DNA from: Vibrio tubiashii
GTDB lineage: Bacteria; Pseudomonadota; Gammaproteobacteria; Enterobacterales; Vibrionaceae
Assembly: GCA_000775715.1 (NCBI GenBank)
Contig: JRWQ01000001.1
Span: 616,923 to 648,922, forward strand
DNA: 32,000 nt
Reading direction: 5' to 3'
Position numbers and translations under genes: made by a program. Numbering within the stretch: position 1 is the stretch's first letter; every line of letters begins with the position of its first letter. The notes beneath the pieces are model-generated. The model was not told where the DNA came from. It was given only the letters and a program-made list of their open reading frames with translations, and made no database searches. Positions 7,593-28,800 of the stretch are shown piece after piece.

Positions 7593-7614
7593 CGAGCTCA
7601 ACTAAGGAGCCACT

Positions 7615-12085: not shown

Positions 12086-13150
12086 ATGTTAGAAATTAAG
12101 CAATTGGTAAAAACCTACGAAAATGGCCATCAGGCAGTCAAAGGCGTCAATCTGGATACCACCAACGGTGAATTTATCGTTCTTGTTGGCCCTTCAGGCT
12201 GTGGGAAGTCTTCTATTTTGCGTTCTATCGCTGGCTTAGAGTCGATCTCAGGTGGCGAAATCTACCTCAACAACCGACGTGTTGACACTGAAAAGCCTGC
12301 GTCACGCGATATCGCGATGGTATTCCAAAACTATGCGCTCTATCCACATATGACGGTATACAACAATCTTGCTTACGGCCTAAAAAATCGTGGCGTAGAT
12401 AAGGCCGTGATTGATGAGAAAATTCAAAACGTCGCCAAGACACTCAAGATTGAAGAGTACTTAGATCGCAAACCGGCGAAACTCTCTGGAGGCCAAAGAC
12501 AGCGTGTCGCGATGGGCAGGGCGATCGTTCGTGATCCGCAGCTATTCTTGTTTGATGAGCCGCTATCAAACCTCGATGCTTCACTGCGCGCCCACATGCG
12601 CCTCAAGATCAAGAAGTTGCAGCGTGAGTTAGGCGTGACGAGTGTGTACGTTACACATGATCAAGTTGAAGCTATGACCCTAGCTGATCGCATTGTTGTA
12701 CTCAATCAGGGTCAAATAGAGCAAGTCGGCACACCGTCTGAAGTTTACCACTGGCCGGCCAGCCGCTTTGTAGCGAGTTTTATGGGCAGCCCGGCGATGA
12801 ACTTTTTGCAAGCGACGCTCCAAGATGGCGTTCTCTCCGTCGCAGGTCATGATATTCCAGTGCCTGAATATAACGGTATTAATCAGGAAGTCACTCTGGG
12901 TATCCGCCCTGAACATGCCGAGACAAAGGCGCTAGACAACGCTCTGAACTTTGTACTGAACATCAGTGTGATTGAACCGTTGGGCCCGAATCAGCTGGTG
13001 CACGGTAAGGTGGATGGGCAAGCTTTTATCGCGGTGACACCTGAAACGGAATTTGACGTAGCAGTGCCGCTGAGCCTTTATGTTGATCGCGGTAACCTCC
13101 ACCTATTTGATGCGCAGGGAAAGCGCATTGAGCCAATTAAGTTGCAATAA
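12086..13150 (+). CDS. ugpC: ABC transporter ATP-binding protein, UgpC-like
   Basis: 354 aa; Walker A GPSGCGKSS, signature LSGGQRQRVAMGRA, Walker B LFLFDEPLSNLD, TOBE-type C-terminal domain. Confidence 0.92.
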   Translation: MLEIKQLVKTYENGHQAVKGVNLDTTNGEFIVLVGPSGCGKSSILRSIAGLESISGGEIYLNNRRVDTEKPASRDIAMVFQNYALYPHMTVYNNLAYGLKNRGVDKAVIDEKIQNVAKTLKIEEYLDRKPAKLSGGQRQRVAMGRAIVRDPQLFLFDEPLSNLDASLRAHMRLKIKKLQRELGVTSVYVTHDQVEAMTLADRIVVLNQGQIEQVGTPSEVYHWPASRFVASFMGSPAMNFLQATLQDGVLSVAGHDIPVPEYNGINQEVTLGIRPEHAETKALDNALNFVLNISVIEPLGPNQLVHGKVDGQAFIAVTPETEFDVAVPLSLYVDRGNLHLFDAQGKRIEPIKLQ

Positions 13151-13180
13151 CAGATACCAACCCCAGATAAGGACATTACG

Positions 13181-13942
13181 GTGACTCTATCTTTAAGACA
13201 AAAAGAGATTCTTAGCTATCTACAGCGCAGCAATGGTGTTCTATCCAGTGCTCTGCTGTCAGAGACATTCAACATATCGGTTCAGACCATTCGTAAGGAT
13301 ATGAATGATTTGAGCGATAAAGGGCTTGTTCGGCGCGTACATGGCGGGATTACTCTGCCAAGTGCTAATGATAACTTATCGTTTACCAATCGAGATTTGC
13401 TGAATGTCTCAGCTAAGCAGCGCATAGCGAAAAAAGTGGCTAGCGAAATCCCAGAGGGGTGCAGTATTTTCCTCGGTATAGGGACCACACCTAAGCATGT
13501 GGCGACGGCTCTGTTGGATCACCCAGGCTTAACCGTGGTCACTAACAATATAAATGCGGCTCTTACGCTAAGTCGAAATTCTAATATTTCTACTTATCTT
13601 GCGGGGGGAGCGGTCAGAATTTCAGATGAAGATACAGTTGGTGAGGCGACGACACGCTTTTATCGCCAATTTAATATCAAGATTGGTATCTTTGGTATTG
13701 GTGGTTTAGGAGACCAGGGGGAGCTTCTGGATTTTACTCCGGAAGAGGCTAATCTCACTAGAGCCATCATTGAGCAGAGCCGCCAGTGTTGGCTGATTGC
13801 TGATAAAACCAAACCGGGCAGATACGCGCCAGTTGTCAGCGCGCAGCTTTCCGAAATGGATCGTTTGTTTGTAGATGATGCAGTACCAGAGTTTCAATCA
13901 CTATGTAGAATCAATCAGGTAGAGCTGGTTGTCGCAGATTAA
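13181..13942 (+). CDS. DeoR-family transcriptional regulator embedded in the ugp-like operon
   Basis: 253 aa, GTG start; LRQKEILSYLQRSNGVLSSALLSETFNISVQTIRKDMNDLSDKGLVRRVHGG and ...CWLIADKTKPGRYAPV. Confidence 0.9.
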   Translation: MTLSLRQKEILSYLQRSNGVLSSALLSETFNISVQTIRKDMNDLSDKGLVRRVHGGITLPSANDNLSFTNRDLLNVSAKQRIAKKVASEIPEGCSIFLGIGTTPKHVATALLDHPGLTVVTNNINAALTLSRNSNISTYLAGGAVRISDEDTVGEATTRFYRQFNIKIGIFGIGGLGDQGELLDFTPEEANLTRAIIEQSRQCWLIADKTKPGRYAPVVSAQLSEMDRLFVDDAVPEFQSLCRINQVELVVAD

Positions 13943-13951
13943 GGAATAATA

Positions 13952-14659
13952 ATGAGACCAATAATTGTCGGTCATAGAGGGGTGTCAGGCCACTATCCTG
14001 AGAACACAAAAGCCAGTATAGAGGCGGCGATTTCTATGGGTTTGGAATGGATAGAGGTCGATGTTCAGCCGACCAAAGATCGCCAGCTTGTGATCTGCCA
14101 TGATCATACGCTTGATAGATGCAGCAATGGTGAAGGGCGTGTCGACCAACACACGCTTGAAGAGTTAAAACAGCTTGATTTCGGTTCGTGGTTCTCTTCA
14201 GACTTTGCTAGCGAAGAGATCTTAACCCTAGGTGAGTTGTTTGCCATTGTTAAGGTAAGCAACATTAAGCTCAATCTAGAGATTAAGCTCGATACTGATT
14301 GTGCGGAAGAGGTGGTTACTAGCGTTGCGCAGTTGCTGAGTGAGCATCAGATAGATGATGAATCGATAATCCTTTCAAGCTTCAATCCGCAAGTGATGAG
14401 AGCCCTCGGAGAGCAGTGCAGTGAGTACAAGCTCGGAGTCATTTGCGACGAGCTAAGCAGTGATGTTCTCGCTCTGTTTAAAACCATCAATGCCTATAGC
14501 TGCCATTTGAACTATAAGCACATTACCGAAGCAGATCTCAACCAACTTGCAGAGATAGGCTGCGCTGTATGGTGCTTTACGGTTAATGAACCCGTGAGCT
14601 TCCCGTTGCTCGATAAAGTGGATGCGATCTTTAGTGATTATCCTGAGCGGTTTTTGTAG
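13952..14659 (+). CDS. ugpQ: Glycerophosphodiester phosphodiesterase (UgpQ-like)
   Basis: 235 aa; IVGHRGVSGHYPENTKASIEAAISMGLEWIEVDVQPTKDRQLVICHDHTLDRCSNG is the GDPD catalytic signature (HRG...PENT, E..D, HD). Confidence 0.92.
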   Translation: MRPIIVGHRGVSGHYPENTKASIEAAISMGLEWIEVDVQPTKDRQLVICHDHTLDRCSNGEGRVDQHTLEELKQLDFGSWFSSDFASEEILTLGELFAIVKVSNIKLNLEIKLDTDCAEEVVTSVAQLLSEHQIDDESIILSSFNPQVMRALGEQCSEYKLGVICDELSSDVLALFKTINAYSCHLNYKHITEADLNQLAEIGCAVWCFTVNEPVSFPLLDKVDAIFSDYPERFL

Positions 14660-14718
14660 AAGTAGTTCACAAAATAACCACAACAAGCTTTCTAACTAGT
14701 CTTCTTATTTGCTAATTT

Positions 14719-14738
14719 ATCTTCAAAATAATGAAGAT
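14719..14738. promoter_or_regulatory. Perfect palindrome immediately upstream of yhfZ; candidate operator
   Basis: ATCTTCA (14719-14725) - AAATAA - TGAAGAT (14732-14738), ending 8 nt before the yhfZ ATG at 14747. Confidence 0.5.
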
Positions 14739-14746
14739 TTAAATTT

Positions 14747-15643
14747 ATGTCAGTTCAATACATTAGCAAAGAAGGCGCAGCGATCATGAATATCGCTCAA
14801 TACCTAATGACCACAAACGAAGGTGATCGGTTAAGAACTATCGACTCGCTCTCAGAGGAGTTTGCGGTCTCGGTAGGCTTTATTCAAAAAGCGCTAACCA
14901 CCATAGAGCAGCGTGGTGCCGTAGTGTTATCAAAACAGGGACGCAACGGTACTTTTATCAGCCAGTTAAACTATCAAGAATTGGTTGCATGCGCTGGGAT
15001 CAGCAATGTCGTTTGTGCTATGCCACTTCCCTATACTCGTCATTATGAAGGGTTGGCAAGCGGTCTAAAAGCGCAACTTGGTGGTCTTCCGCTCTACTTT
15101 GCCCATATGCGCGGTGCAAGCGTACGTGCCGAATGTTTGAGAAATGGCACCTATGATGTGGCAATTATGTCGAAGTTGGCAGCGAAAGAGTTGGCATCTG
15201 GGTTGATTACGGCCATTGATTTGGGGCCAAGGACTTATTCTCACGAACACCGTTTAATCTTTCGTCAGGGAGAGTTTGAGCAAATCAAACGTGTCGGTGT
15301 CGATCCCGATTCTCCAGACCAAAAAATCCTCACTAGTCAGGCATTTGAAGACAAGGAAATCGAAATTGTCGAAATACACTACGGTGAAAGTTTAAATCAC
15401 CTGACCAATGGTGATATTGACGCAGTCGTTTGGCTTCCAGAAGCCATTGATATGGAGAAATATGGCTTAGCAGAGCAATCGCTTAGCCACCTACCAGCGT
15501 GCCAGCAAGCATCAGAAGCTGTTATGTTGGTCAATGGCAACGAGCAGCACATTACTACCTTGCTGCGTAAATTACTGAAACTTTCACCGCTACTGATCCA
15601 TCAACAAGCGGTGGTGAAAGGTGAACTCACACCAAGCTATTAA
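14747..15643 (+). CDS. yhfZ: YhfZ-like protein: putative regulator with N-terminal winged-helix and C-terminal periplasmic-binding-like sensor domain
   Basis: 298 aa; NVVCAMPLPYTRHYEGLASGLKAQLGGLPLYFAHMRGASVRAECLRNGTYDVA and terminal HQQAVVKGELTPSY match E. coli YhfZ closely. Confidence 0.9.
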   Translation: MSVQYISKEGAAIMNIAQYLMTTNEGDRLRTIDSLSEEFAVSVGFIQKALTTIEQRGAVVLSKQGRNGTFISQLNYQELVACAGISNVVCAMPLPYTRHYEGLASGLKAQLGGLPLYFAHMRGASVRAECLRNGTYDVAIMSKLAAKELASGLITAIDLGPRTYSHEHRLIFRQGEFEQIKRVGVDPDSPDQKILTSQAFEDKEIEIVEIHYGESLNHLTNGDIDAVVWLPEAIDMEKYGLAEQSLSHLPACQQASEAVMLVNGNEQHITTLLRKLLKLSPLLIHQQAVVKGELTPSY

Positions 15644-15652
15644 AGGTGACAT

Positions 15653-16024
15653 ATGGAAGAGCGACTCGAGCTGCTGCTGCAAGCCAATGTGATTAGCTCA
15701 AAAGCGCAACAAGGCTGTTTACGAGCAATTGATATCATCGATAAGCAACTGCCTGTGCGGCACGACAATGAACAGTATCAAATGGCGATCACTCATTTGG
15801 CAAGAGCGGCGGATCGTATTTGGCAAAATGAAGCCGTAGTAGAGGGATTGGACCAAGACATTCTCGATGAGATTTCTGCTGATGAATGTTATTCCGACAC
15901 ACTCGCACTACATCAAGATGTATTGGGTGCGATGCAGCTTCACACTGTACCGAGTAGTGAGGAGGGGTTTATGCTAGCCAATATCTATTCATTGATTCAG
16001 ACCTCTCTTGAGGAGACAAAATGA
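15653..16024 (+). CDS. yhfY: YhfY-like small protein (PRD-domain-like)
   Basis: 123 aa between yhfZ and php; MEERLELLLQANVISSKAQQGCLRAIDIIDKQL. Call rests on size, position and PRD-like look. Confidence 0.7.
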   Translation: MEERLELLLQANVISSKAQQGCLRAIDIIDKQLPVRHDNEQYQMAITHLARAADRIWQNEAVVEGLDQDILDEISADECYSDTLALHQDVLGAMQLHTVPSSEEGFMLANIYSLIQTSLEETK

Positions 16025-16899
16025 TGATTGATGCTACGGGTTATACCTACTGCCATGAGCACTTGCACATCGACTTATCACCACAAAAACACACTCTTGA
16101 TTGTCGATTGGATCAATACCAGCTGCTGTGTGAAGAGATGCGTGACGTTCAAAAACGTGGAGTACGTAACATCGTAGAAGTGACCAACTCTTTTATGGGA
16201 AGAAATCCTCAATTTATTGAAAATTTAATTAATGACACCGGTATCAACGTCTTGCTCTCTACTGGTTTCTATATTGAAGGATTCTTTCCCGCTGGTTTGT
16301 ACGACGCAAGTGTCGAGCAAATTGCCCAAGGAATGATCAATGAGATAGAAGTTGGTATTGATGGCTCTTGCTTAAAAGCAAGCGTGATTGGTGAAATTGG
16401 CAGTAGCGAAGATCAGTTTAGTCCAACCGAGCAAAAAGTCTTTCAAGCCGCAGCAATCGCCCATCTTGAAACGGGTCGTCCAATCTCAACTCACCAATCA
16501 ATGAGCACGATGGGCAGACAACAAATTGAACTACTAAAACAGTGCGGCGTTGAAATGGAAAACGTCACCATTGGGCACTGTGACCTGCGCGATAACTTTG
16601 AGCACATTGTTTGGATGCTCGATCAAGGCTGCTATGTGCAGTTCGACACCATTGGCAAAAACAGTTACTACCCAGACGAAAAACGTGCAGCCTCCCTCGC
16701 CGAGCTATGCCGACGTGGCTACGAAAAACAGATCATGCTCTCGATGGACATTACCCGTCGATCGCACTTGAAAGCCAACGGTGGCCTAGGTTTTAGCTAC
16801 CTAATTGACAAATTTGTGCCCTTGCTTAAACACCATGGGGTTAGTGATCACCAAATAAGCACCCTACTAAAAACCAACCCTGCTCGCTTATTTGGCTAG
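16021..16899 (+). CDS. php: Phosphotriesterase homology protein (Php/YhfV)
   Basis: 292 aa; DATGYTYCHEHLHIDLS...NCRLDQ-like region, KASVIGEIGSSED, RPISTHQSMSTMG, VTIGHCDLRDN, MLSMDITRRSHLKANGG: full amidohydrolase metal-ligand set and strong similarity to E. coli Php. Overlaps the yhfY stop by 4 nt. Confidence 0.93.
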   Translation: MMIDATGYTYCHEHLHIDLSPQKHTLDCRLDQYQLLCEEMRDVQKRGVRNIVEVTNSFMGRNPQFIENLINDTGINVLLSTGFYIEGFFPAGLYDASVEQIAQGMINEIEVGIDGSCLKASVIGEIGSSEDQFSPTEQKVFQAAAIAHLETGRPISTHQSMSTMGRQQIELLKQCGVEMENVTIGHCDLRDNFEHIVWMLDQGCYVQFDTIGKNSYYPDEKRAASLAELCRRGYEKQIMLSMDITRRSHLKANGGLGFSYLIDKFVPLLKHHGVSDHQISTLLKTNPARLFG

Positions 16900-16933
16900 A
16901 GAGCGTCCGCGCTCAAAAATATAAGGATAGAAC

Positions 16934-17293
16934 ATGAAAAAAATCGCGATTGCTGGTTTGCAGCGTGAGCAAATCAAACAGCAAATTGAGACAACCATGC
17001 CTGACACCTTTGAGTGCCATATCCTCACCGATATGGATGCGGCGATGAAGGTTAAGTCAGGAGAAATTGACTACTTTATTGGCTGTTGCAATACCGGTGC
17101 TGGTGGCGCATTAGCTATGGCTATTGCCATTATTGGCTTTGGTCAAAGTTGCACTATTGCAAAGCCTTCAATTCAAGCAAAGCAAGATGAGGTTCAGCAG
17201 TTTATAGATAAAGGTTGTGTCGCGTTTGGTTTATCGATTGAACATGTCGAGCATGCCGTTCCGATGCTAACAAAACTACTCGCAGAGAAGTAA
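16934..17293 (+). CDS. yhfU: YhfU-like small protein (DUF2620-type)
   Basis: 119 aa; KKIAIAGLQREQIKQQIETT...MDAAMKVKSGEIDYFIGCCNTGAGGALAMAIAIIG...FGLSIEHVEHAVPML matches E. coli YhfU. Confidence 0.88.
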   Translation: MKKIAIAGLQREQIKQQIETTMPDTFECHILTDMDAAMKVKSGEIDYFIGCCNTGAGGALAMAIAIIGFGQSCTIAKPSIQAKQDEVQQFIDKGCVAFGLSIEHVEHAVPMLTKLLAEK

Positions 17294-17303
17294 GGAGTCC
17301 ATC

Positions 17304-18605
17304 ATGGATATTATGCACATTGGATTGGTTGCTGCACTCTGCGCCATGACCGCATTGATTGCCAACATGAGTGCCGCCGTCTTCCATGACGGCATCCGCC
17401 CTGTCTTGCCACAATTATTCGAAGGTAATATGACTCGCCGAGATGCGGGGTCTGTTGCGTTCGGTCTTTCTATTGGTTTCGTTGCTTCAGTGGGTATTTC
17501 ATTTACCTTATCGACTGGGCTACTTAACCCTTGGTTACTCTTTTTACCTACCGATATTCTTGGGGTTATGATTGGTAGCCGCATACTTGCGGCGCTCGCT
17601 GGTGGGTTATGGGGAGTGTTAGTTGTAACTTCTTTAGCCGGTGTGAATGCTGTTTTAACTGGCCTACCGATTGATGCTCTTGGCGCGCTTGGTGAACTCG
17701 GTACACCGGTAATGTCAGCCTTTGCACTCTTCCCTCTATTGGCCATTTTCTATCAGTTTGGCTGGAAAGCAGGGGCAATTGCAGCCGGTGTGATTTTGCT
17801 TTCTCGCTTAATGATCATCAAGTTCACAGGCATCTACCCAGAATCCATTCAAATCTTTGTCGGTATGCTAATGCTGGTTTTCTTTGCGGTTCGTAAAGAC
17901 TTAGCGGATCGTAAAGCAGGTATGCAGGCTCCAGATATGTCTGGCCTACACAGCATTTTCGAAGAACGAACCAAGCGTATTGTTAAACACTTACCTTTCT
18001 TGGCTGTGACAGGAGCACTGATTGCGGCGGTCTCCAACGGGGGTATTTTTGCCGGTTCCGAAGTTTCAATCTATTCACTTGCTGATGCACTAAAAATTGC
18101 TGATCCTGAAGCTCAAGATGCGGCCATGAAGCAAGTGGCGCTATCTGAGTTTATGCGTGGCTTAGGTTTTATTCCACTGATTGCTACTACAGCGCTCGCA
18201 ACCGGTGTTTATGGCGTGGTGGGCATGACCTTCGTGTTTGTCGTTGGCTATCTATCCCCCAATATGGCAGTCGCAGCAGCATTAGGTGCCGTCACTATTT
18301 GCCTAGAAGTTTATTTATTGCGTGGCATTGGCCGTTTCTTAGAACAGTTCCCTTCAATTCGGAACGCTTCAGACAATATTCGCAACTCAATGAACACGCT
18401 AATGGAGTTCGCACTTCTTATCGGTGGTGTTCTCGCTGTGATGAAAATGGGTTCCACCACAGGATTTACTATCTTTGCGATGTTGTTCTACCTCAACGAA
18501 GTTATGGGTCGCCCAGTATTGAAGATTGCAGCTCCAGCCGTAGCCGCCATTCTCACTGGTGTCATCTTAAACCTTCTTCACGTGGTTGGACTGTTCGCCA
18601 TCTAA
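17304..18605 (+). CDS. yhfT: YhfT-like multi-spanning membrane protein, putative transporter
   Basis: 433 aa, very hydrophobic; starts 10 nt after yhfU behind TAAGGAG. Confidence 0.85.
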   Translation: MDIMHIGLVAALCAMTALIANMSAAVFHDGIRPVLPQLFEGNMTRRDAGSVAFGLSIGFVASVGISFTLSTGLLNPWLLFLPTDILGVMIGSRILAALAGGLWGVLVVTSLAGVNAVLTGLPIDALGALGELGTPVMSAFALFPLLAIFYQFGWKAGAIAAGVILLSRLMIIKFTGIYPESIQIFVGMLMLVFFAVRKDLADRKAGMQAPDMSGLHSIFEERTKRIVKHLPFLAVTGALIAAVSNGGIFAGSEVSIYSLADALKIADPEAQDAAMKQVALSEFMRGLGFIPLIATTALATGVYGVVGMTFVFVVGYLSPNMAVAAALGAVTICLEVYLLRGIGRFLEQFPSIRNASDNIRNSMNTLMEFALLIGGVLAVMKMGSTTGFTIFAMLFYLNEVMGRPVLKIAAPAVAAILTGVILNLLHVVGLFAI

Positions 18606-18726
18606 AAATAAATAGCCGAGCTGATCACTGGCTTAAATTACTCAATTAGATCAATTGGTATCGTTATTTAACCAGCGCTACAGAGATGTTAGTGCCGGAT
18701 CAGCTCATTCCTAAAAAGGGGAGAAA

Positions 18727-19908
18727 ATGTTTTTAAAAGCCTTAGAAAAGCAAAATCCCGACTTAGTACAAGCCGCGTTAAGCTTATTTAATCAAGGTTT
18801 ATTGATGCCGGATACAACCGTCATTGATGTAGACCAGTTTATTAACAACGCCCAAAATATACGCCAACAGGCAGATAGATATGGACTGAAATTATTTGCC
18901 ATGACCAAGCAAGTAGGTCGTAATCCTTTACTCGCTAAAATCCTAATCGAGCAATGTCAATTTGATGGAATTGTCTGTGTCGACTTTAAAGAGGCGCGAT
19001 TAATGGCAAAGTATGGGTTGCCAGTTGCGAATGTAGGTCATTTAGTCCAGCCTCCCACTAATATGATTGACAGCCTGATTAGAGAAATTCAGCCTCAGGT
19101 GATTACGGTTTACAGTCTCGATAAAGCCAAACAGATCTCAAATGCTGCACAGAAGTATCAGCGTCAACAAGGCCTGCTGCTGAAGTTCTATCACGAGCGC
19201 GATCAACTTTATACGAACCAAGAATCTGGTTTTCCAATCGAAGAGCTGGATGAGATTGTCGCAGAAATTGCAGCGATGCCAAACGTGCATATTGAGGGCG
19301 TCACCCATTTCCCTTGTTTTCTATATGATAAAAAAAGTCACAAAACCCAGCCTACGGCAAACTTAACTACCCTTATTGAGGCAAAGCAGAGGTTAGAGCA
19401 ACTGGGCGTGGAGTGCCGTCAAGTCAATGCGCCTTCAGCAACTTGTATTGAAACCTTACCGATACTAGCAGAGTTTGGTTGTACGCATGGTGAGCCTGGG
19501 CACGCATTGACTGGCACAGTGCCTGCCAATGCCACCACTATCCAAAGCGAAAAAATCGCGATGCTATACCTTAGTGAGGTGTCTCACCATTATGGTTCAG
19601 ACAGTTACTGCTTTGCTGGTGGTTACTATCGTAGGGGGAGTCTAGAGAACTGTTTGGTATTCGATAACGACAAGCGCTATCTCACCTGTATCTACAATGA
19701 TGATCGCGATAGCATCGATTATCATCTGCGTATATCTGGATTGTTTCCTATCGGCTCACCAGTAATCATGGCGTATCGCACTCAAGTCTTTGTCACCAGA
19801 AGTGATGTTGCTTTAGTCTCCGGAATTAGCAGTGGCAAGCCACATCTTATGGCCGTTTATGACGCATTGGGAAATCCACTTAACACCAGTGAGGTGCATC
19901 ATGGCTAG
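18727..19908 (+). CDS. yhfX: YhfX-like PLP-dependent enzyme (alanine racemase N-terminal fold)
   Basis: 393 aa; TTVIDVDQFINNAQNIRQQADRYGLKLFAMTKQVGRNPLLAKILIEQ, GVTHFPCF, APSATCIETLPILAEFGCTHGEPGHALTGTVPAN, IFVTRSDVVLVSG-like terminus, matching E. coli YhfX. Confidence 0.92.
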   Translation: MFLKALEKQNPDLVQAALSLFNQGLLMPDTTVIDVDQFINNAQNIRQQADRYGLKLFAMTKQVGRNPLLAKILIEQCQFDGIVCVDFKEARLMAKYGLPVANVGHLVQPPTNMIDSLIREIQPQVITVYSLDKAKQISNAAQKYQRQQGLLLKFYHERDQLYTNQESGFPIEELDEIVAEIAAMPNVHIEGVTHFPCFLYDKKSHKTQPTANLTTLIEAKQRLEQLGVECRQVNAPSATCIETLPILAEFGCTHGEPGHALTGTVPANATTIQSEKIAMLYLSEVSHHYGSDSYCFAGGYYRRGSLENCLVFDNDKRYLTCIYNDDRDSIDYHLRISGLFPIGSPVIMAYRTQVFVTRSDVALVSGISSGKPHLMAVYDALGNPLNTSEVHHG

Positions 19909-21145
19909 ATTTATTGTCGTGGTTCTTGATGGCTTTGGCGTAGGTGAAATGCCGGATGTGCCTCAAGTGAGACCACAAGACTGTGGTGCAAACACTGCCA
20001 ACAAATTGCTGTCTCACTTTGCTCTCAAACGACTACCCACTCTGGAAAAATTGGGGCTACAGAATGTGGTCGGTAACTCTGAGTCACTGATGAAGCCCAA
20101 CCCAGATGCCAATACAGGTTCAGCTTGGCTTGCTCATGAAGGTGGAGACACGTTTATGGGACACCAAGAAATCATGGGCACAAAGCCAAAGCCACCATTA
20201 GTTCAACCCTTTCAACAAGCGCTGGCAAAGATTGAGTCAGCAGTGATCGAGACAGGTTATCACGTTGAAAGAATTACCCAGCAAGGGTTGTCATTGCTGC
20301 AAATTGAACACGGAGTCATTGTCGGCGATAACTTAGAGGCAGATTTAGGACAAGTCTATAACTTAACATGCAATTTCAATGTAGTGCCGTTTGAAAAACT
20401 GCTTGAGATTGCCAGTGTCGTGCGGGCCAATAACCCAGTAAGTCGCAATATCGCTTTTGGTGGCAATATTGAGTCAGAGAACGGCATACCTAGTATGCAA
20501 CGCGTCTATAACGCTATTGAAGTAAAAAACGACCACCAAGGGCAACCCACTTATATTGGTATCAACGCACCAGATAGCGGCGCGTATGAGTGTGGTTTTC
20601 AAGTGGCTCACTTAGGCTTCGGTGTGGATGCACTGACTCAGGCACCTTATCTGCTCCATCAACAAGGTATTAAAACCTGGTTATATGGCAAAGTCGCAGA
20701 CATCGTGCAAAATCCTAATGGTCAATCCTACTTGTCGGTTGTGGATACCGATGCAGTATTTCGCTTGCTAACCCAAGATTTAGCCACGCAAACGCAAGGG
20801 TTCTTCTGCGCCAATGTACAAGAAACGGACCTTTCTGGGCACCAGCAAGATCCCAAACAGTATTGGCGTGTTCTTGAACGAGCAGATAGAGGGTTGAGCC
20901 AAGTGATCGAAAAAATGGCCGAGCAAGACGTGCTCATCGTTATGGCTGATCATGGTAATGATCCGTTTATTGGCCACACCAAACATACAAGGGAGAAAGT
21001 ACCACTCCTGGCGATGAAAAAAGGTCGTCAAGCCCTCGCTCTCGGTGAGCGTGAAACATTGTCAGATGTAGGAGCGACGGTCTGCAACTTTTTTGCCGCA
21101 CAGGCACCAGAAAACGGATCACCTATTACCAGTTTGTTAAACTAG
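19901..21145 (+). CDS. yhfW: YhfW-like phosphopentomutase-family metalloenzyme (alkaline phosphatase superfamily)
   Basis: Start ATG 19901 behind GAGGTG, overlapping the yhfX end by 8 nt (provided ORF start 19832 is too early). MARFIVVVLDGFGVGEMPD, HEGGDTFMGHQEIMGT, MADHGNDPFIGHTKHTREKVPLL. Confidence 0.9.
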   Translation: MARFIVVVLDGFGVGEMPDVPQVRPQDCGANTANKLLSHFALKRLPTLEKLGLQNVVGNSESLMKPNPDANTGSAWLAHEGGDTFMGHQEIMGTKPKPPLVQPFQQALAKIESAVIETGYHVERITQQGLSLLQIEHGVIVGDNLEADLGQVYNLTCNFNVVPFEKLLEIASVVRANNPVSRNIAFGGNIESENGIPSMQRVYNAIEVKNDHQGQPTYIGINAPDSGAYECGFQVAHLGFGVDALTQAPYLLHQQGIKTWLYGKVADIVQNPNGQSYLSVVDTDAVFRLLTQDLATQTQGFFCANVQETDLSGHQQDPKQYWRVLERADRGLSQVIEKMAEQDVLIVMADHGNDPFIGHTKHTREKVPLLAMKKGRQALALGERETLSDVGATVCNFFAAQAPENGSPITSLLN

Positions 21146-21200
21146 TTTTAAGCCTAAACAGAGTTAATTCAAGATATTATGATTCTTGTTTAGTTGTTAT

Positions 21201-21240
21201 AGCCTCCTAGTCTCCCCCCTGCGCTAAGAGGCTTTTCTTT
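21201..21240 (+). terminator. Putative terminator after the yhf block
   Basis: AGCCTC (21201-21206) ... GAGGCT (21228-21233) followed by TTTCTTT; long loop, so moderate support. Confidence 0.5.
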
Positions 21241-21257
21241 ACGCTGCGCTATCGCGA

Positions 21258-21302
21258 CTCGATAAAGTCGATGCAATCTTTAATGATTATCTATAACGGT
21301 TT
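21258..21302 (+). pseudogene. Relic similar to the 3' end of the ugpQ-like gene at 14609-14653
   Basis: 38 of 45 aligned bases identical by manual count; reads LDKVDAIFNDYL-stop versus LDKVDAIFSDYPERFL in the intact gene. Confidence 0.65.
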
Positions 21303-21410
21303 GCATAAGGTAAAAGCGATAGAGTTGCTCTTCTTAGCTATCAACCGAGTAACACTGAAAGCAAAAGTGTTATAAATCAGTCGGCAATTGAGGAGGAAGG
21401 GCTAAAGACA

Positions 21411-21935
21411 TTAGTCCTGATTTAAAGCTTGTAGCTGGCTATTGTTATTGTTCGATTGATACAAGCGATATATGGTCAGTAAGTTGGTGATGATAAAGGT
21501 ACTCTCGACCAATGAACCCCCGATCGACCCAAGCCAAATATTGTGGCTCACCCAACAAAAAGAATTGAACAGAATTAAGCTGCGAAGTGTGATACCTCGT
21601 TTGGAAAAGAGTGCCCAAGTGGCGACGGACGATCCTATCACCGTGAGGAGCTCAAAAAAGTGAGTGATGTTTGGTAGGGTCATTAGCCACATTAGCGCAA
21701 TGAAGAACCACATCACTTTGCGTGATTGGGTTTTGATTGAGGCGAAGCTGCGAATGCCATTAATGATCACGCCAATGGCAGCGACGGTTGCACCCATTAG
21801 GGTAAAGTGAATCCCCATGATGAAACAAAACGCCATCATCTGATAGCGAAAGCGCATATCATCTTTCTGCCAGAATGCCATCACGCCAACCATAAACGCG
21901 ATGCCACCAACGCCTTGTGCTAACCAGTTTTCCAT
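21411..21935 (-). CDS. YgjV-family inner membrane protein
   Basis: 174 aa hydrophobic; GVGGIAFMVGVMAFWQKDDMRFRYQMMAFCFIMGIHFTLMGA...LTIYRLYQ resembles the YgjV family. Confidence 0.75.
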   Translation of the reverse strand: MENWLAQGVGGIAFMVGVMAFWQKDDMRFRYQMMAFCFIMGIHFTLMGATVAAIGVIINGIRSFASIKTQSRKVMWFFIALMWLMTLPNITHFFELLTVIGSSVATWALFSKRGITLRSLILFNSFCWVSHNIWLGSIGGSLVESTFIITNLLTIYRLYQSNNNNSQLQALNQD

Positions 21936-21982
21936 TTTTCCCCTAGAGTGTTGTTTTTTGAGCCAAGCTTTGAACGAATCAA

Positions 21983-22000
21983 CCCTCCATATAGGGAGGG
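21983..22000 (-). terminator. Stem-loop downstream of eda; possible weak terminator of the minus-strand hexuronate operon
   Basis: CCCTCC (21983-21988) - ATATAG - GGAGGG (21995-22000); no clear T tract on the minus strand. Confidence 0.35.
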
Positions 22001-22062
22001 CTGGGCACCATATCTAATTCGCTAAGGGATTACCCAAGAGCCTTGAGGCTACTTACGAATCA

Positions 22063-22692
22063 TTACTCATTTACAAGCGCTACTGCTTCGCGAGTTAGGC
22101 GTGCAAGCTCTTCCCAGTTGCCTGCTTCGATAAGTTTCTTGTCTACCATCCACGTACCACCACATGCCAATACACGCGGGATAGCTAGATAATCTTTGAT
22201 GTTCGCAGGGTTAATGCCACCAGTAGGCATTAGTTCGATGTTAGTGTATGGCGCGAGCAGAGATTTCACCATGTTGATGCCGCCAGAAGCTTCGGCGGGG
22301 AAGAACTTCAAGGTGGTTAATCCCATTTCCAGTGCGGCTTCAACTGTGCTTGGGTTGTTTACACCCGGTACGATATCAATTCCGATCGCTTGGCACGCTT
22401 TAACGGTATTTGGGTTAAAGCCAGGCGAAACGATAAAGGTTGCGCCTGCTTCTTTTGCTGCAAGTGCTTGCTCGCGGTTCAACACCGTTCCTGCGCCAAT
22501 CAGCATGTCTGGTTGGCTTTCACGCAGTAGACGAATCGCTTCTACAGCGGCTGCGGAACGGAAGGTGATCTCAGCCGCTGGGAGTCCGTTTTCTGCCAGT
22601 ACTTTACCCAGTGGGACAATGTCTTCTGCTTTATCTATGGCGATAACAGGGATGACTTTCAGAGCTTTCAATTGTTCTTTAATACTAGACAT
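22063..22692 (-). CDS. eda: Bifunctional 4-hydroxy-2-oxoglutarate aldolase / 2-dehydro-3-deoxy-phosphogluconate (KDPG) aldolase
   Basis: 209 aa; VIAIDKAEDIVPLGKVLAENGLPAAEITFRSAAA, GAGTVLN, FIVSPGFNP, FFPAEASGG, MPTGGI. Confidence 0.95.
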   Translation of the reverse strand: MSSIKEQLKALKVIPVIAIDKAEDIVPLGKVLAENGLPAAEITFRSAAAVEAIRLLRESQPDMLIGAGTVLNREQALAAKEAGATFIVSPGFNPNTVKACQAIGIDIVPGVNNPSTVEAALEMGLTTLKFFPAEASGGINMVKSLLAPYTNIELMPTGGINPANIKDYLAIPRVLACGGTWMVDKKLIEAGNWEELARLTREAVALVNE

Positions 22693-22701
22693 GAGTGTTC
22701 C

Positions 22702-23679
22702 TTAAACGACGTCAAGCGCCGGTTGTGTGAATGCTTTGGGAATGATGGCACCGCGATGTTGAATCACAGCACCTGCCAGTGCGTTACCTCTTTGACATGA
22801 GGTCGCGAGATCGGCGCCAGCAAGGTATGCCGATAAAAAGCCACCATTGAATGAGTCGCCCGCCGATGTGGTATCCACCACTTGAGCGACAGGTTGGGTT
22901 GGCACGGCTTGTGGAGCCAAAGCCGCGCTCGAATCCTGATTTGTTGAGTTTTGAACTAAGCAGCCATCTGAACCAAGTTTGACGATGCATTTGCCCACGC
23001 CAAGAGAGGTAAGGCGTTCAATGGTTTGCTCTGGAGTTTCGTCGCCCCAGATCAATTGCTCATCATCAAAAGTCACCAAGGCGACGTCCGTCAGTTGATA
23101 AATGGCTTGGTAAACGTTTTTGACGGTTTGATTATCGTCTTGAGGCCATAACGCTGGGCGGAAGTTACTATCAAATGCGATTTCAACGCCTTGGGCTTTA
23201 AGCTCGACCAATAGGTTGAGCAGTGAAATTCGGTCTTCTTCTGGCAAGATGGCTAGAGAGATACCGCTGAGAAACACCGCATCCACATGAGTTAATGCTT
23301 GCTTAACCAGACCAAAGTTAGGGTGTTGAAGTAAGTGACGTGCTGCTGATTGATTGCGCCAATATAGAAACGTACGCTCGCCTTGATCATCAAGCTGAAT
23401 CAAGTACAAGCCCGGCGTGCGAGTTTCATCGCGTAGCACCAAATCTGTTGAGACGCCTTCGTCTTCCCAGCGAGTTAGCATGCCCGAGCTGATTGGGTCA
23501 TTGCCAAGCGCCGTAACGTAAGAGACTTTAACTTCATCAGGTTTGCTATTGGCTTCGCAGCCGCGGCTCAAATAAACCGCAGCGTTGAGCGTATCCCCAC
23601 CAAATGTTTGATGCATTGAGCCGAACGGTTTTCCATTTAGCTCAATCATACATTCACCAATAATGGCGATGTGCTTCAT
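22702..23679 (-). CDS. kdgK: 2-dehydro-3-deoxygluconokinase (PfkB family)
   Basis: 325 aa; GECMIELNG, FGGDTLNAAVYLSR, DSNFRPALW, VDTTSAGDSFNGGFLSAYL. Confidence 0.94.
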   Translation of the reverse strand: MKHIAIIGECMIELNGKPFGSMHQTFGGDTLNAAVYLSRGCEANSKPDEVKVSYVTALGNDPISSGMLTRWEDEGVSTDLVLRDETRTPGLYLIQLDDQGERTFLYWRNQSAARHLLQHPNFGLVKQALTHVDAVFLSGISLAILPEEDRISLLNLLVELKAQGVEIAFDSNFRPALWPQDDNQTVKNVYQAIYQLTDVALVTFDDEQLIWGDETPEQTIERLTSLGVGKCIVKLGSDGCLVQNSTNQDSSAALAPQAVPTQPVAQVVDTTSAGDSFNGGFLSAYLAGADLATSCQRGNALAGAVIQHRGAIIPKAFTQPALDVV

Positions 23680-23682
23680 TGG

Positions 23683-25095
23683 TTACGCCCTCTCTTCAAA
23701 GTAGCGTTTTGCGTTACCAAAACAGATGTCTTCAACCATAGGACCAAGCAACGATAGGTCATTTGGAATTTCGCCGTTCTCTGCCCAACGACCGACCATG
23801 TCACACAAGATGCGGCGGAAGTATTCGTGACGGGTGTAAGACAAGAAGCTGCGCGAGTCCGTTAGCATACCGACGAATTGGCTGAGCAAACCAAGTTGAG
23901 AAAGTTGCTCCATTTGGCGTTGCATGCCGTCTTTCTGGTCGTTGAACCACCAACCTGAACCAAACTGCACTTTGCCCGCGATACCGCCACCTTGGAAGTT
24001 TCCAATCATGGTCGCCATCATTTCGTTATCACGAGGGTTCAAACAGTAAAGAATGGTGCGAGGCAGTTCGTTGGTTTGGTCCATTTCATCCAACAGGTGT
24101 GCCAGTTCAAAGGCAAATGGGCGATCGCCAATCGAGTCAAAGCCAGCATCGGCACCTAACAGTTGGAACATGCGTGTGCTGTTGTTGCGCTGCGCGCCAA
24201 TATGAAGCTGCATGACCCAGCCCAATTTCGCGTAGCGTTTGCCGAGCCAAACTTGAACTGCGGTAGAGAACTGCGCACATTCAAGATCTGACAATACTTC
24301 GCCATTCAAACGACGGGTCAGCAACGCATCTAAATCAGCCTCGCTTGGGATCGGTGCGTAACGGACGATCTCAATGCCGTGGTCTGCTGCACGACATCCA
24401 TGTGCATCGAAGTGTGCCAAACGTTTATCAAGCGCACTCAATAAATCATCAAAGCGGCGAATTTCAATGTCTGCTATTTCACCCAATTTGTGGATGTAAT
24501 CCGCAAACACGTCCAATTCAATCTTGAACGCTTTATCCGGACGCCAGCTCGGCAGCACTTTAACGTTAAATGTGTCGTCTTCTGCGATCGCTTTGTGGTG
24601 CTCTAGTGAATCGATAGGATCATCGGTTGTGCCCGCCATGACGACGTTCATTTGCTGCATGATGCCACGAGCCGTAAATTCAGGTGTCGCCAGTAGCTCA
24701 TTACATTGATGCCAAATTTGGTCAGCGGTGTCTGGGCTAAACAGCGTATTGGTAAGGCCGAATGGGCGACGCAGTTCTAAGTGCGTCCAGTGGTAAAGCG
24801 GGTTGCCCAAGGTTTGAGGAACCGTCTTCGCCCACGCCATGTATTTGTCGTAATCGCTCGCGTCACCCGTAATCAAATTCTCTTCAATGCCTGCCGAGCG
24901 CATGCCACGCCATTTGTAGTGATCGCCTTCAAGCCAGATTTGACTCAAGTTATCGAACTGACGATTTTGCGCCACTTCCGCTGGGTTTAGATGGCAGTGG
25001 TAATCATAAATTGGCTGGTGGAACGCATGCTCATGGTACAAGCGACATGCAGTTTCGTTTGAGAGTAAAAAGTCTTCACACAAGAAATTCTTCAT
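23683..25095 (-). CDS. uxaC: Glucuronate (uronate) isomerase
   Basis: 470 aa; [66 protein letters not shown] and [21 protein letters not shown]. Confidence 0.96.
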
Positions 25096-25107
25096 CGTTA
25101 ACTCCTA

Positions 25108-26571
25108 TTACAGCGCAGCTACAGTGGCACGAGCGCCGTGATCAATCAGCGATTGGTAAGCGCTGCTCACCGCATCAATCACTTGTGGGTTTTGCCCAAG
25201 CTCTGCAGGGAAGATGGCTTCAACTGCGAGCAACGCAGGTACCACAGAAACGTTCAAGCCGTGTTGGTCGCAAATCTGACGCAGTGTCTCTGCCATTGGA
25301 TCGCGAACATCAATGTCGTTGCCTTGCTCGTCCACGCCAGATACGTAGCGCATCCAACCTGCAATTGCTGTTGCCAACCATGAGAAGTTAGAACCTTGAG
25401 CAAGATGGAATCGCAAGCTGCCATCCATACGTTGTGGGATCTTCTGGCTGCCATCCATCGCGATTTGCCAGGTTTTGTGTTTCAAGCTTGGGTTAGTGAA
25501 GCGCTCGATAAGCAGCTTAGCGTAGCCTTCTAAATCGGTGCCTTCTGGCATGGTCAGCGAAGGAGCTTGCGCTTGCATCATCATGTCGAATGCCGCTTTG
25601 CGGTAGCCTTCGTCTGTCATGGTGTCAGAGATGTGCGCGTAACCGCCAAGGTAGCCTAGGTAGGCTAGGAACGAGTGGCTACCATTTAGCATGCGCAGTT
25701 TCATTTCTTCGTAAGGCACAACGTCGGCAACAAACTCTGCGCCAGCCACGCTCCAATCCGGGCGACCTGCCACGAAGTTATCCTCGATAACCCATTGGCG
25801 GAAAGGTTCACAAGCGATACCACATGGATCTTCACAGCCAAGTAGCTCAGCGATTTCGGTCAGCGTCTCTTCGGTTGCTGCTGGCACAATGCGGTCAACC
25901 ATGGTGCAAGGGAAGGTAACATTGGTTTCAATCCAGTCGCGTAATTCTGGATCGAGTAGTTGAGCGAACTCAAGTACCGCTGCTTTTGCTACGTGACCGT
26001 TCTCTTGCACGTTGTCGCAAGACATCACGGTAAATGGCGTCAGACCGCGCTCACGGCGCATTTTTAGTGCTTGCACGATGTAACCCAATGCCGATTTTGG
26101 CTCCGTTGGGTTGGCAAGGTCAGCAATGACTAGCGGGTTGTTTTTATCAAGCGTGCCCGTTGCTGGGTCGGCGCAGTAGCCTTTCTCGGTAATCGTCATT
26201 GAAACGATCGCCACTTGTGGCTCTGTCATTTTTTCTAACACCGCTGGAATGCTGTCGAGGCTTGGGTGGAGTGATTCGGTCACTGAGCCAATCACTTTTA
26301 CCTCAGTCGATTCTGCGCCTTTCTCTGCCACTGTATAGAGGTGATCTTGTGCGCGCAGCGATTGAATTAAGTCTTCACCACCAAATAGGTTGATTTCGCA
26401 AATGCCCCAATTCGAGCCTGTTTTACTTAGCATTTCATTGGTGAATAGAGCTTGGTGCGCTCGGTGGAATGCACCGAAACCAAGGTGAACAATACGGCTT
26501 GTAAGTGTTGAACGGTCGTAGTCCGGTAGCAGAGCGTGGTCATTTAGAGTGGAATTCGAAATAGTCTTCAT
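25108..26571 (-). CDS. uxuB: Fructuronate reductase / mannitol dehydrogenase family oxidoreductase
   Basis: 487 aa; IVHLGFGAFHRAHQALFTNEML, FTVMSCDNVQENGHV, MVDRIVPAATEE, KLRMLNGSHSFLAYLGYLGGY. Confidence 0.92.
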   Translation of the reverse strand: MKTISNSTLNDHALLPDYDRSTLTSRIVHLGFGAFHRAHQALFTNEMLSKTGSNWGICEINLFGGEDLIQSLRAQDHLYTVAEKGAESTEVKVIGSVTESLHPSLDSIPAVLEKMTEPQVAIVSMTITEKGYCADPATGTLDKNNPLVIADLANPTEPKSALGYIVQALKMRRERGLTPFTVMSCDNVQENGHVAKAAVLEFAQLLDPELRDWIETNVTFPCTMVDRIVPAATEETLTEIAELLGCEDPCGIACEPFRQWVIEDNFVAGRPDWSVAGAEFVADVVPYEEMKLRMLNGSHSFLAYLGYLGGYAHISDTMTDEGYRKAAFDMMMQAQAPSLTMPEGTDLEGYAKLLIERFTNPSLKHKTWQIAMDGSQKIPQRMDGSLRFHLAQGSNFSWLATAIAGWMRYVSGVDEQGNDIDVRDPMAETLRQICDQHGLNVSVVPALLAVEAIFPAELGQNPQVIDAVSSAYQSLIDHGARATVAAL

Positions 26572-26652
26572 TTTGGTATCCCTTTTCCCGCAAGCGTACC
26601 TGCGGGATGGTCTGTTTTAATCATTCGTAATCTAGAGCTTATAACCTAGCGT

Positions 26653-27954: not shown

Positions 27955-27968
27955 TTTGGAACCCTCTA

Positions 27969-28481: not shown

Positions 28482-28519
28482 TTTCATTTCCTTAAAGTAA
28501 ATACGCTGACTGTATAACA

Positions 28520-28783: not shown

Positions 28784-28800
28784 CCATGGAGAATAAAACA

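Follow-up and report, generated by a model that had tools for sequence, protein, structure and literature searches.

Organization of the yhf gene cluster in Vibrio tubiashii

A 32,000-nucleotide stretch of the Vibrio tubiashii genome (assembly GCA_000775715.1, contig JRWQ01000001.1, positions 616,923 to 648,922 of the forward strand; hereafter the window, numbered from its first letter) carries a cluster of seven yhf genes, relatives of the yhf genes of Escherichia coli. Specifically, matches to Pfam and NCBIfam families identify yhfZ, yhfY, php, yhfU, yhfT, yhfX and yhfW, in that order, as seven open reading frames (ORFs) that all lie on the plus strand between positions 14747 and 21145. Spacing within the cluster is tight: 9 nt separate yhfZ from yhfY, 34 nt separate php from yhfU, 10 nt separate yhfU from yhfT and 121 nt separate yhfT from yhfX, while yhfY and php overlap by 4 nt and yhfX and yhfW by 8 nt. 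The start of yhfW is placed by homology at the ATG at position 19901, as opposed to the GTG at position 19832 at which the mechanically called ORF begins. A preliminary description of this stretch, prepared from its letters alone, had reported seven closely spaced yhf genes of one direction and had noted that yhfS is not found in the window. The family matches and ORF coordinates bear out the first of these statements, and the second is upheld by tblastn searches of the 32-kb window with the YhfS proteins of E. coli, Sebaldella, Caprobacter and Melghirimyces, the best of which reached E = 0.55. The same searches found no yhfS remnant in the yhfT-yhfX spacer or in the rest of the window.

The order given in the preliminary description for the E. 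coli operon, yhfZ-Y-X-W-php-U-T-S, matches the RefSeq annotation of NZ_CP027437. The seven genes of the window have orthologues in this cluster at approximately 37 to 65% protein identity, and both clusters are of single orientation and tightly spaced. The two differ in that the E. coli cluster places yhfX-yhfW between yhfY and php, contains yhfS, and resides in another chromosomal context, whereas in the window yhfX-yhfW stands last and yhfS is lacking. Much closer relatives are found among the vibrios, with the YhfT of the window being 96% identical to the YhfT proteins of V. rhodolitus, V. ponticus and V. scophthalmi. Judged by gene content, gene order and the residues described below, the cluster of the window represents the yhf module in the form standard for Vibrionaceae, and its seven genes are intact with their catalytic residues kept.

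Protein identity between the window and V. rhodolitus (locus L004) is uneven along the cluster: YhfT (95 to 96%), YhfU (95%) and YhfZ (93%) are far more alike than YhfW (80%), YhfX (75%) and YhfY (68%), and identity at the DNA level is 76% overall. Such a pattern could reflect either a very strong constraint upon YhfT and YhfU or a mosaic origin of the cluster.

Gene order and the distribution of yhfS across lineages

Relatives of the yhf cluster occur at 316 places among the genomes of 185,579 species, with a few genomes containing two copies. For comparison of gene neighborhoods, 80 loci were taken from species-representative genomes and more were added through exact-protein look-ups and plasmid records; each was scored by tblastn using reference proteins from Vibrio, E. 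coli, Caprobacter and Sebaldella. The resulting census of gene order comprises 88 rows, namely 87 related loci and the window. The order seen in the window is the commonest of all (31 of the 88 rows), and is shared by 28 Vibrionaceae species (one fetched twice), Aeromonas sobria and a metagenome-assembled genome of the Fusobacteriaceae. Other lineages arrange the genes differently: Clostridium butyricum has the order Z-PRD-U-T-php-X-W (in which PRD denotes a gene for a PRD domain protein), Caprobacter and Melghirimyces have Z-Y-U-T-php-S-X-W, Sebaldella has Z-PRD-php-U-T-amidase-S-X-W, Cetobacterium has Z-PRD-U-T-amidase-php-S-X-W, and a Bacillus thuringiensis plasmid has PRD-U-T-php-S-X.

Comparison of these arrangements demonstrates that the yhfX-yhfW pair is terminal in Firmicutes and Fusobacteriota as well as in Vibrionaceae, and that its internal position, between yhfY and php, is confined to Enterobacterales. 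By this distribution, it is terminal X-W that is widespread, and the E. coli order that is specific to one lineage. Since X-W is also terminal in Firmicutes and Fusobacteriota, a forward move of the pair in Enterobacterales appears more likely than a backward move in Vibrio, and the pair behaves as a movable unit. The preliminary description had taken the opposite starting point and regarded the cluster as rearranged. While it is true that the order departs from that of E. coli, it is the norm for Vibrionaceae and the most frequent in the census.

A stronger version of that earlier view would hold that the cluster was rearranged locally in this organism, with X-W moved behind yhfT and yhfS deleted, giving rise to an unusual, YhfS-independent version of the pathway. 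The unlikeness to the E. coli order and the lack of yhfS in the window speak for this account. Set against it are the identical S-less order of the 28 Vibrionaceae species, A. sobria and the Fusobacteriaceae genome, and the fact that X-W also stands last in Clostridia, Bacilli, Sebaldella and Cetobacterium, the internal placement being found in Enterobacterales only. A local rearrangement is therefore considered very unlikely. The comparative neighborhood analysis, which the preliminary description had itself put forward as a check, thus speaks against local rearrangement even as it agrees that yhfS is missing here.

The distribution of yhfS itself is patchy. The gene is present in Enterobacteriaceae, Sebaldella, Cetobacterium, Caprobacter, Melghirimyces and B. 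thuringiensis, and is absent from all of the approximately 30 Vibrionaceae loci, as judged within 10 kb on either side, as well as from the clusters of C. butyricum, Serratia and Yersinia. This recurrence of S-less loci removes the grounds for treating the form without yhfS as a special variant, and marks yhfS as an apparently accessory gene that has been lost repeatedly and is dispensable to the module. It could be argued instead that the YhfS step is still needed and is supplied in trans by a yhfS-like gene, or by another gene for a fold-type I pyridoxal 5'-phosphate (PLP) enzyme, located elsewhere in the genome. Gene sets of this kind can indeed be split, as two Enterovibrio species illustrate (see below), and the deepest-branching clusters (Cetobacterium, B. 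thuringiensis, Caprobacter, Melghirimyces and Sebaldella) all carry yhfS. On the other hand, not one of the approximately 30 Vibrionaceae loci has yhfS in its 10-kb surroundings, and the recurrence of S-less clusters in C. butyricum, Yersinia and Serratia points to dispensability, making provision in trans unlikely.

Unlike yhfS, the genes php, yhfU and yhfT are missing from no locus examined. Gammaproteobacteria and two of the fusobacterial loci have the three side by side as php-U-T, and Firmicutes have them side by side as U-T-php. Together, the three genes constitute the invariant core of the module. The preliminary description had proposed a broader conserved core, which is right in outline, although php, yhfU and yhfT alone are invariant and X-W is movable. 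In Enterovibrio coralii (L013/L055) and E. qingdaonensis (L017/L035) the gene set is divided between two loci, one with Z-Y-php-U-T and the other with operator-U-T-X-W; because the second locus supplies the X-W pair that the first lacks, the set in these species is split, not reduced. The two U-T pairs of Enterovibrio are divergent, and the yhfW of L013 appears broken. Also of note are gene calls on short metagenomic contigs in which YhfU is joined to YhfT (556 aa) or YhfT to YhfS (798 aa) (P0416, P0457 and P0458); these could be true fusions, or could be artefacts of assembly or frameshift.

Genomic context and evidence for horizontal movement

Nucleotide similarity between the window and its closest relative, V. 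rhodolitus, is confined to positions 14648-21160 (76%). The cluster is bracketed by a 45-nt direct repeat on the plus strand. The left copy (14609-14653) lies within the last 17 codons of a gene encoding a glycerophosphodiester phosphodiesterase (GDPD; 13952-14659), whose product ends in LDKVDAIFSDYPERFL. The right copy (21258-21302) is a non-coding remnant that reads LDKVDAIFNDYL followed by a stop, and represents a second GDPD C-terminus. The two copies are identical at 38 of 45 positions, as compared with at most 28 of 45 in shuffled controls. These observations suggest that a 6.6-kb cassette entered at the 3' end of the GDPD gene by insertion, leaving a 45-nt duplicate downstream. A role for the repeat as the general attachment site of the cassette was considered and rejected: no comparable repeat surrounds the cluster at 11 other loci, where the best matches (22 to 26 of 45 positions) are at background, and the repeat therefore marks this one insertion.

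Movement of the cluster is also evident from its surroundings in other genomes. Nearly every Vibrionaceae species has other genes on either side of the cluster, and in V. halioticoli the cluster is borne on a 244-kb plasmid. Owing to these unrelated neighbors and to the plasmid copy, the data indicate that the yhf cassette has moved horizontally. Among the gene-sized ORFs (at least 100 aa, not nested) of positions 13181-23679 there is no integrase or transposase, all belonging to other families, and exact-sequence look-ups of the GDPD and YgjV proteins of the window, made in search of a genome free of the insertion, returned no record of either protein.

Insertion also accounts for the genes that now adjoin the cluster. 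A functional tie to the upstream ABC transporter, DeoR regulator and GDPD genes was rejected, with a GDPD gene adjoining the cluster at no other locus, and their adjacency is explained by the insertion. Downstream, positions 21411-32000 hold a hexuronate cluster composed of genes for YgjV, Eda, KdgK, UxaC, a mannitol-dehydrogenase-family protein, the TRAP components DctQM and DctP, an FCD-type GntR regulator, and UxuA; the genes for 2-keto-3-deoxygluconate (KDG) kinase and 2-keto-3-deoxy-6-phosphogluconate (KDPG) aldolase (22063-23679) lie within approximately 2.5 kb of the end of the cassette. Both the upstream genes and the hexuronate cluster are regarded as accidental neighbors. Taken together, the identity of the module and the account of its evolution are held with high confidence.

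Farther upstream, positions 4897-8748 encode a CdaR-type regulator, a GntP permease and a glycerate kinase. Positions 34-3041 encode a glycyl-radical enzyme resembling pyruvate formate-lyase (807 aa) and a radical S-adenosylmethionine activase, followed by a DeoR regulator and a patatin-like lipase, all of which are unrelated to yhf.

Proposed regulation of the yhf cluster

The palindrome ATCTTCA-AAATAA-TGAAGAT, located at positions 14719-14738 and 8 nt upstream of the yhfZ ATG, is proposed to be the operator of the cluster. It includes a perfect TCTTCA-N6-TGAAGA (14720-14737), the sole such site in the window. The palindrome is invariant in Vibrio, Thaumasiovibrio, Photobacterium and Aeromonas, while the intergenic sequence surrounding it diverges. 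Across the census, a site with at most one mismatch precedes the first gene of the cluster in 53 of 88 rows, as compared with 1.5% of random 280-nt windows. These 53 rows include E. coli and its relatives, in which the TCTTCA-N6-TGAAGA palindrome is likewise upstream of yhfZ, at a distance of 31 nt. The alternative that the palindrome acts as an RNA hairpin was rejected: changes in its arms are not compensatory, and it is consequently read as a DNA element, and likely as the operator of the yhf operon.

The likeliest protein to bind this candidate operator is YhfZ, the product of the first gene (14747-15643, plus strand). YhfZ is composed of a GntR-like helix-turn-helix and a YhfZ_C sensor domain (PF14502 and PF14503) and scores 359 bits against NF041241, for which the cutoff is 260. 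Immediately downstream of yhfZ, yhfY (15653-16024, plus strand) encodes a 123-aa protein approximately 37% identical to E. coli YhfY in alignment. Several observations point to YhfY as a stand-alone PRD domain. Firstly, PF00874 matches 15 of 18 diverse YhfY proteins, albeit weakly (best 2.3e-5; 16.1 bits for the YhfY of the window vs. a cutoff of 23). Secondly, a profile of the YhfY family matches the PRD regulator of PDB entry 3NUF (E = 0.0018), placing the invariant His48 on the histidine of the "NHL" motif. Thirdly, the proteins at the position of YhfY in Sebaldella, C. butyricum and Caprobacter exceed the PRD threshold. In addition, NCBI names the protein at this position "PRD domain-containing protein" in two annotated plasmid clusters.

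PRD modules are normally phosphorylated by proteins of the phosphotransferase system (PTS). YhfY would resemble the PTS-controlled regulators of the BglG/LicT, GlcT and MtlR types in possessing a PRD with a conserved histidine, but would differ from them in being a single PRD without an RNA- or DNA-binding domain. YhfY would thus need a partner protein through which to act, presumably YhfZ.

At the other end of the cluster, a terminator-like hairpin (AGCCTCCTAG...CTAAGAGGCT, followed by a T-run) occupies positions 21201-21241 of the plus strand and would mark the end of both the operon and the cassette. Both V. rhodolitus and V. kasasachensis keep this hairpin after yhfW, and it is the point beyond which similarity to relatives stops. 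Promoter and terminator calls inside the cluster did not rise above chance, and a scan of positions 13000-22500 against Rfam gave no match. Given the overlaps of yhfY with php and of yhfX with yhfW, the lack of above-chance internal terminators, and the conserved operator and terminator at either end, the simplest reading is that the seven genes form one operon.

The spacer between yhfT and yhfX deserves separate consideration. It has a fold z-score of -2.9 and could form a long-range stem of 9 bp on the plus strand between GAGCUGAUC (18618-18626) and GAUCAGCUC (18698-18706). Both arms are kept in seven Vibrio species while the middle diverges, two compensatory pairs are seen in Vibrio sp. 99-8-1, and 87% of cells are paired, as compared with 23 to 44% when the partner columns are slid. 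This stem may be a processing or stability element. Its presence also bears on the possibility that the cluster comprises two transcription units, Z-Y-php-U-T and X-W, separated by a promoter or processing site in the 121-nt spacer. The spacer is the only large gap in the cluster and is the largest at all Vibrionaceae loci (48 to 222 nt); X-W shifts between lineages as an independent pair, and the structured element in between is conserved. Neither a sigma-70-like promoter nor a terminator was called in the spacer, however, and no second operator is present there; the stem has no T-run and is not an obvious terminator, and co-orientation and adjacency are preserved at 30 loci. An arrangement as two units is accordingly rated as doubtful. 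The regulatory model favored here, which is rated as reasonably probable, is that of a single YhfZ-controlled operon extending from the palindromic operator at 14719-14738 to the terminator at 21201-21241, in which the stand-alone PRD protein YhfY would couple expression to the phosphorylation state of the PTS.

Predicted activities of Php, YhfX and YhfW

Three of the seven genes encode recognizable enzymes. The product of php (16021-16899, plus strand) is a binuclear-metal amidohydrolase of the phosphotriesterase family (PF02126), which scores 380 bits against the structures of E. coli Php (4LEF/1BF6) with the ligands H12, H14, E125, H158, H186 and D243 aligned. The six metal ligands are at least 97% conserved in 84 homologues. 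In classical phosphotriesterases, a carboxylated lysine is found where Php has Glu125. The Php of the window scores 451 bits against the Php equivalog NF007373, for which the cutoff is 486. Among characterized enzymes, the same TIM-barrel binuclear-metal family includes both the phospho-furanose lactonase Lmo2620 (3PNZ; E = 1.7e-32) and the N-acetyltaurine hydrolase PTER (9EFA; E = 8e-26). Php is nonetheless set apart from lactonases of the Lmo2620 type by a score of 102 bits against NF045706, an equivalog with a cutoff of 630.

YhfX (18727-19908, plus strand) is a fold-type III PLP enzyme, possessing the alanine-racemase fold (PF01168 and PF21279), and matches the structure of E. coli YhfX (4KBX) with E = 1.7e-128. 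Its candidate PLP-binding lysine, K61, is conserved in 74 homologues. YhfW (19901-21145, plus strand) is a phosphopentomutase-like metalloenzyme of the alkaline-phosphatase superfamily that scores 557 bits against NF009049, well above the cutoff of 254. Alignment with the phosphopentomutase of Bacillus cereus (3M8W) demonstrates that D10, the D83-T84 nucleophile motif, and the ADHGNDP and HTRE motifs are kept, and all 71 homologues have either Thr or Ser at position 84. YhfW thus shares with the DeoB phosphopentomutase the nucleophile and metal-binding motifs, but falls well below the cutoffs of the DeoB models (131.9 vs. 341 bits for TIGR01696, and 158 vs. 256 for NF003766). By these scores and motifs, YhfW is predicted to be a phosphomutase-like enzyme and not a DeoB.

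YhfU and YhfT

The remaining two genes, each part of the invariant core, encode proteins of less familiar kinds. yhfU (16934-17293, plus strand) encodes a small alpha/beta protein of the DUF2620 family (PF10941) that has a fold like that of RpiB/LacAB and contains the invariant loop C52-N53-T54-G55-x-G57. An AlphaFold2 model built with 40 homologues has a pLDDT of 96.6, and in a Foldseek search of this model against the PDB the top 15 matches are all type B ribose-5-phosphate isomerases (TM scores of 0.6 to 0.75, probability 1.0 each). Consistent with the structural match, the RpiB/LacAB family PF02502 matches 10 of 14 YhfU members weakly over the Cys loop (13 bits for the YhfU of the window vs. 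a threshold of 24.7), and alignment by hhalign places C52, T54, G55 and G57 of YhfU upon C66, T68, G69 and G71 of E. coli RpiB, the RpiB sequence used having been verified as that of PDB 1NN4/2VVR. C52 is kept in 81 of 81 homologues.

Likeness to the RpiB/LacAB family therefore extends to the fold and the catalytic Cys/Thr loop, whereas the remaining catalytic and phosphate-binding residues are missing and scores remain below the family threshold. Read directly, the YhfU sequence shows GLQRE as its N-terminal motif, a residue other than His at position 99 and no Arg-bearing helix at the C-terminus; YhfU is 30 residues shorter than RpiB. The modelled structure indicates that YhfU is RpiB-like in fold without being a member of the RpiB family, and that it is possibly RpiB-like in chemistry as well.

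yhfT (17304-18605, plus strand) encodes a polytopic membrane protein of 433 aa that belongs to the orphan family PF10797 and is presumed to be a permease. The family is rare, with 279 representatives at 50% identity among 1.84 billion proteins. Though its AlphaFold2 model is confident (pLDDT 86.6, pTM 0.83), Foldseek found no match to the fold in the PDB, the best hit having E = 0.07 and TM scores not exceeding 0.2, and Pfam offered no consistent match besides PF10797, each stray match stemming from a single member of 50. Membership of YhfT in a known transporter family was rejected on the lack of any Pfam or PDB relative; an internal repeat is weakly hinted at by hhalign (probability 5.7%).

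The small size and alpha/beta character of YhfU, together with its invariant cysteine in a glycine-rich loop, raise the question of whether YhfU and YhfT might form a new PTS-like enzyme II, made up of a Cys-phosphorylated, IIB-like protein and an IIC-like permease. Such an enzyme would explain both the PRD protein encoded in the operon and the lack of a kinase, and the two genes are always adjacent and are fused in gene call P0416. The evidence from structure runs the other way: with the top 15 Foldseek matches to YhfU all being RpiB, no PTS IIB appears in the top 50, and YhfU as a PTS IIB was rejected on this search. The cysteine of YhfU follows strand 3, as in RpiB, whereas the cysteine of the cellobiose IIB protein follows strand 1. 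Furthermore, YhfT matches no IIC structure or Pfam family, and relatives carry a complete conventional IIB-IIC-IIA set adjoining the cluster. A PTS-like enzyme II composed of YhfU and YhfT is thus scarcely credible, and YhfU is better viewed as an RpiB-like protein and YhfT as a presumed permease. With regard to the protein roles listed in the preliminary description, the gene families hold, with the amendments that YhfY is a probable PRD protein, that YhfU is RpiB-like and not just Rossmann-like, and that the role of YhfT as a transporter is by inference only.

Context genes, substrate and proposed pathway

Clues to the substrate come from genes found beside the cluster at 29 other distinct loci that share the architecture of the window. 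A gene for a lactose/cellobiose-family PTS IIC lies within 10 kb at 12 of the 29, and six or seven of these 12 possess a full IIB-IIC-IIA set together with DUF7916. At eight of the 29 loci, yhfW is directly followed by a gene for an orphan protein of approximately 727 aa with a C-terminal CBM5/12 chitin-binding module, and at a ninth, in Thaumasiovibrio, the gene for this protein (730 aa) is part of a divergent operon. The N-terminal 680 residues of the CBM5/12 protein (L022, 13942-16125, and homologues) match nothing in Pfam or among solved structures. A gene of the NagB/6-phosphogluconolactonase family directly follows yhfW in Vibrio sp. F74 and Melghirimyces, and an amidase-signature-like gene is found inside the cluster in Sebaldella, in Cetobacterium and on a metagenomic contig.

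The divergent operon of Thaumasiovibrio sp. DFM-14 (L011, 66-7392) brings several of these genes together, encoding a YhfT paralogue (51% identical), the CBM5/12 protein, PTS IIB-IIC-IIA and DUF7916; the 560-nt region between this operon and yhfZ contains three operator-like palindromes. An operator-like site is similarly found in Photobacterium lipolyticum, between a PTS operon and a second yhfZ-php pair.

Two further observations concern these context genes. In Photobacterium spp. (L018, L021 and L024, positions ~19700-21299), a second yhfZ without yhfY is encoded divergently from a PTS operon of the lactose/cellobiose type, approximately 6 kb downstream of the main cluster, and is directly followed by a second php where the sequence reaches that far (L024). 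In Enterobacter sp. BIGb0383 (L068), a homologue of the CBM5/12 protein (29% identical) adjoins yhfZ; Pfam finds no CBM in this homologue.

On the strength of the PRD protein and of the context genes of relatives, it is suggested that the substrate of the pathway is phosphorylated by a PTS and bears an amine or amide. Indirectly, the PRD protein and the PTS genes that adjoin the clusters of relatives favor the guess made in the preliminary description that the substrate is phosphorylated. The best, though tentative, guess as to the chemistry is a catabolic route that is linked to the PTS and acts on an aminated or N-acylated sugar derivative. The substrate, an aminated or N-acylated sugar derivative, would arrive phosphorylated through a PTS encoded elsewhere or would enter through YhfT. 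Php would hydrolyze it, acting as a lactonase or an N-deacylase; YhfU would isomerize an intermediate by means of its catalytic cysteine; YhfW would move the phosphate; and YhfX, through PLP, would racemize or deaminate at the amino-bearing carbon.

Precedents for chemistry of this kind are available. The oxidized chitin product GlcNAc1A is degraded by an amidohydrolase deacetylase, OngB, and a PLP deaminase, OngC (PMC9537276), and the phosphotriesterase family includes an N-acetyl-amine hydrolase, PTER (PMC11374699). By analogy, these examples render the proposed chemistry plausible, and are not proof of it here. The ong pathway of Pseudoalteromonas and Vibrio (PMC9537276) resembles the proposed one in that a hydrolase of the amidohydrolase superfamily and a PLP enzyme act upon a sugar acid resembling a D-amino acid, and in that its product feeds KDG kinase and KDPG aldolase, the genes for both of which adjoin the cassette in the window. 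The two systems differ in that their genes are not orthologous and that ong is without a mutase, an RpiB-like protein, YhfT and a PRD protein. The adjacency of kdgK and eda to the cassette, moreover, may be coincidental, these genes being part of the hexuronate cluster.

A different kind of substrate has also to be weighed, namely a non-sugar amine, such as a compound containing D-amino acids or derived from peptidoglycan, or a damaged metabolite. YhfX has the racemase fold, many lineages add an aminotransferase-fold enzyme and an amidase, and the cluster is followed by a gene of the MurNAc-L-Ala amidase family in C. butyricum and by ATP-grasp genes in B. thuringiensis; in addition, enzymes of the PTER type cleave small N-acetyl amines (PMC11374699). 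By contrast, the phosphopentomutase-like enzyme and the RpiB-like protein point to the chemistry of sugar phosphates, as do the lactose/cellobiose PTS, CBM5/12 and NagB-like neighbors. A non-sugar amine is for these reasons deemed an improbable substrate, and an aminated or N-acylated sugar derivative is retained as the working proposal.

Several observations nevertheless weigh against the overall explanation put forward here. A PTS is lacking within 10 kb at 17 of the 29 loci, and the window itself contains no gene for a PTS, a CBM protein, an amidase or a NagB-like protein, such that the evidence from context comes from relatives. By sequence comparison, Php is about equally distant from the lactonases and from the amidase PTER. 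YhfU lacks the RpiB residues D9/H10, H99 and R133/R137 and falls below the PF02502 threshold. The permease role of YhfT is deduced solely from its polytopic membrane topology and context, and import through a PTS would make YhfT redundant as a second importer. With respect to regulation, binding of the palindrome by YhfZ is inferred, and the 121-nt spacer between yhfT and yhfX, as the largest gap, could offer room for an internal promoter. With these points taken into account, the explanation as a whole, spanning the identity of the module, the cassette, its regulation and its chemistry, is held with moderate confidence.

Implications for yhf biology

The yhf genes are long-standing unknowns of E. 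coli, and Php and YhfX have crystal structures without an assigned function. In full-text literature searches on these genes and on Php, none of the yhf genes was found to have been assigned a function, in agreement with the view of the preliminary description that their physiological role is not settled. The PTER papers contain no discussion of bacterial Php, and one comparative paper lists genes for PRD, DUF2620, membrane and YhfX proteins among the strain-specific genes of Lactobacillus rhamnosus.

Within this setting, the difference in gene order between the window and E. coli is an ordinary one, being the Vibrionaceae standard, and the value of the comparison lies in the clues that it yields to what the yhf system does. 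Specifically, it supplies a set of invariant genes (php, yhfU and yhfT), the dispensability of yhfS, and a candidate operator for YhfZ, together with a link to the PTS through the PRD protein and neighboring PTS genes, and a fold and candidate catalytic cysteine for DUF2620. It also draws attention to YhfT, a membrane protein whose model is confident and for which there is no solved structural relative, and narrows the search for a substrate to aminated or N-acylated sugar derivatives, possibly with a connection to chitin.

It may be, though the odds are presently judged to be against it, that the yhf genes encode a PTS-coupled pathway, regulated by YhfZ and YhfY, for a chitin-associated or aminated sugar derivative, and that this pathway includes two new kinds of protein. 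Were this true, YhfT would represent a membrane fold unseen among solved structures, and YhfU, as a minimal cysteine isomerase resembling RpiB, would define DUF2620. Vibrio species with the seven-gene form of the cluster would then provide a clean system with which to assign function to y-genes of E. coli.

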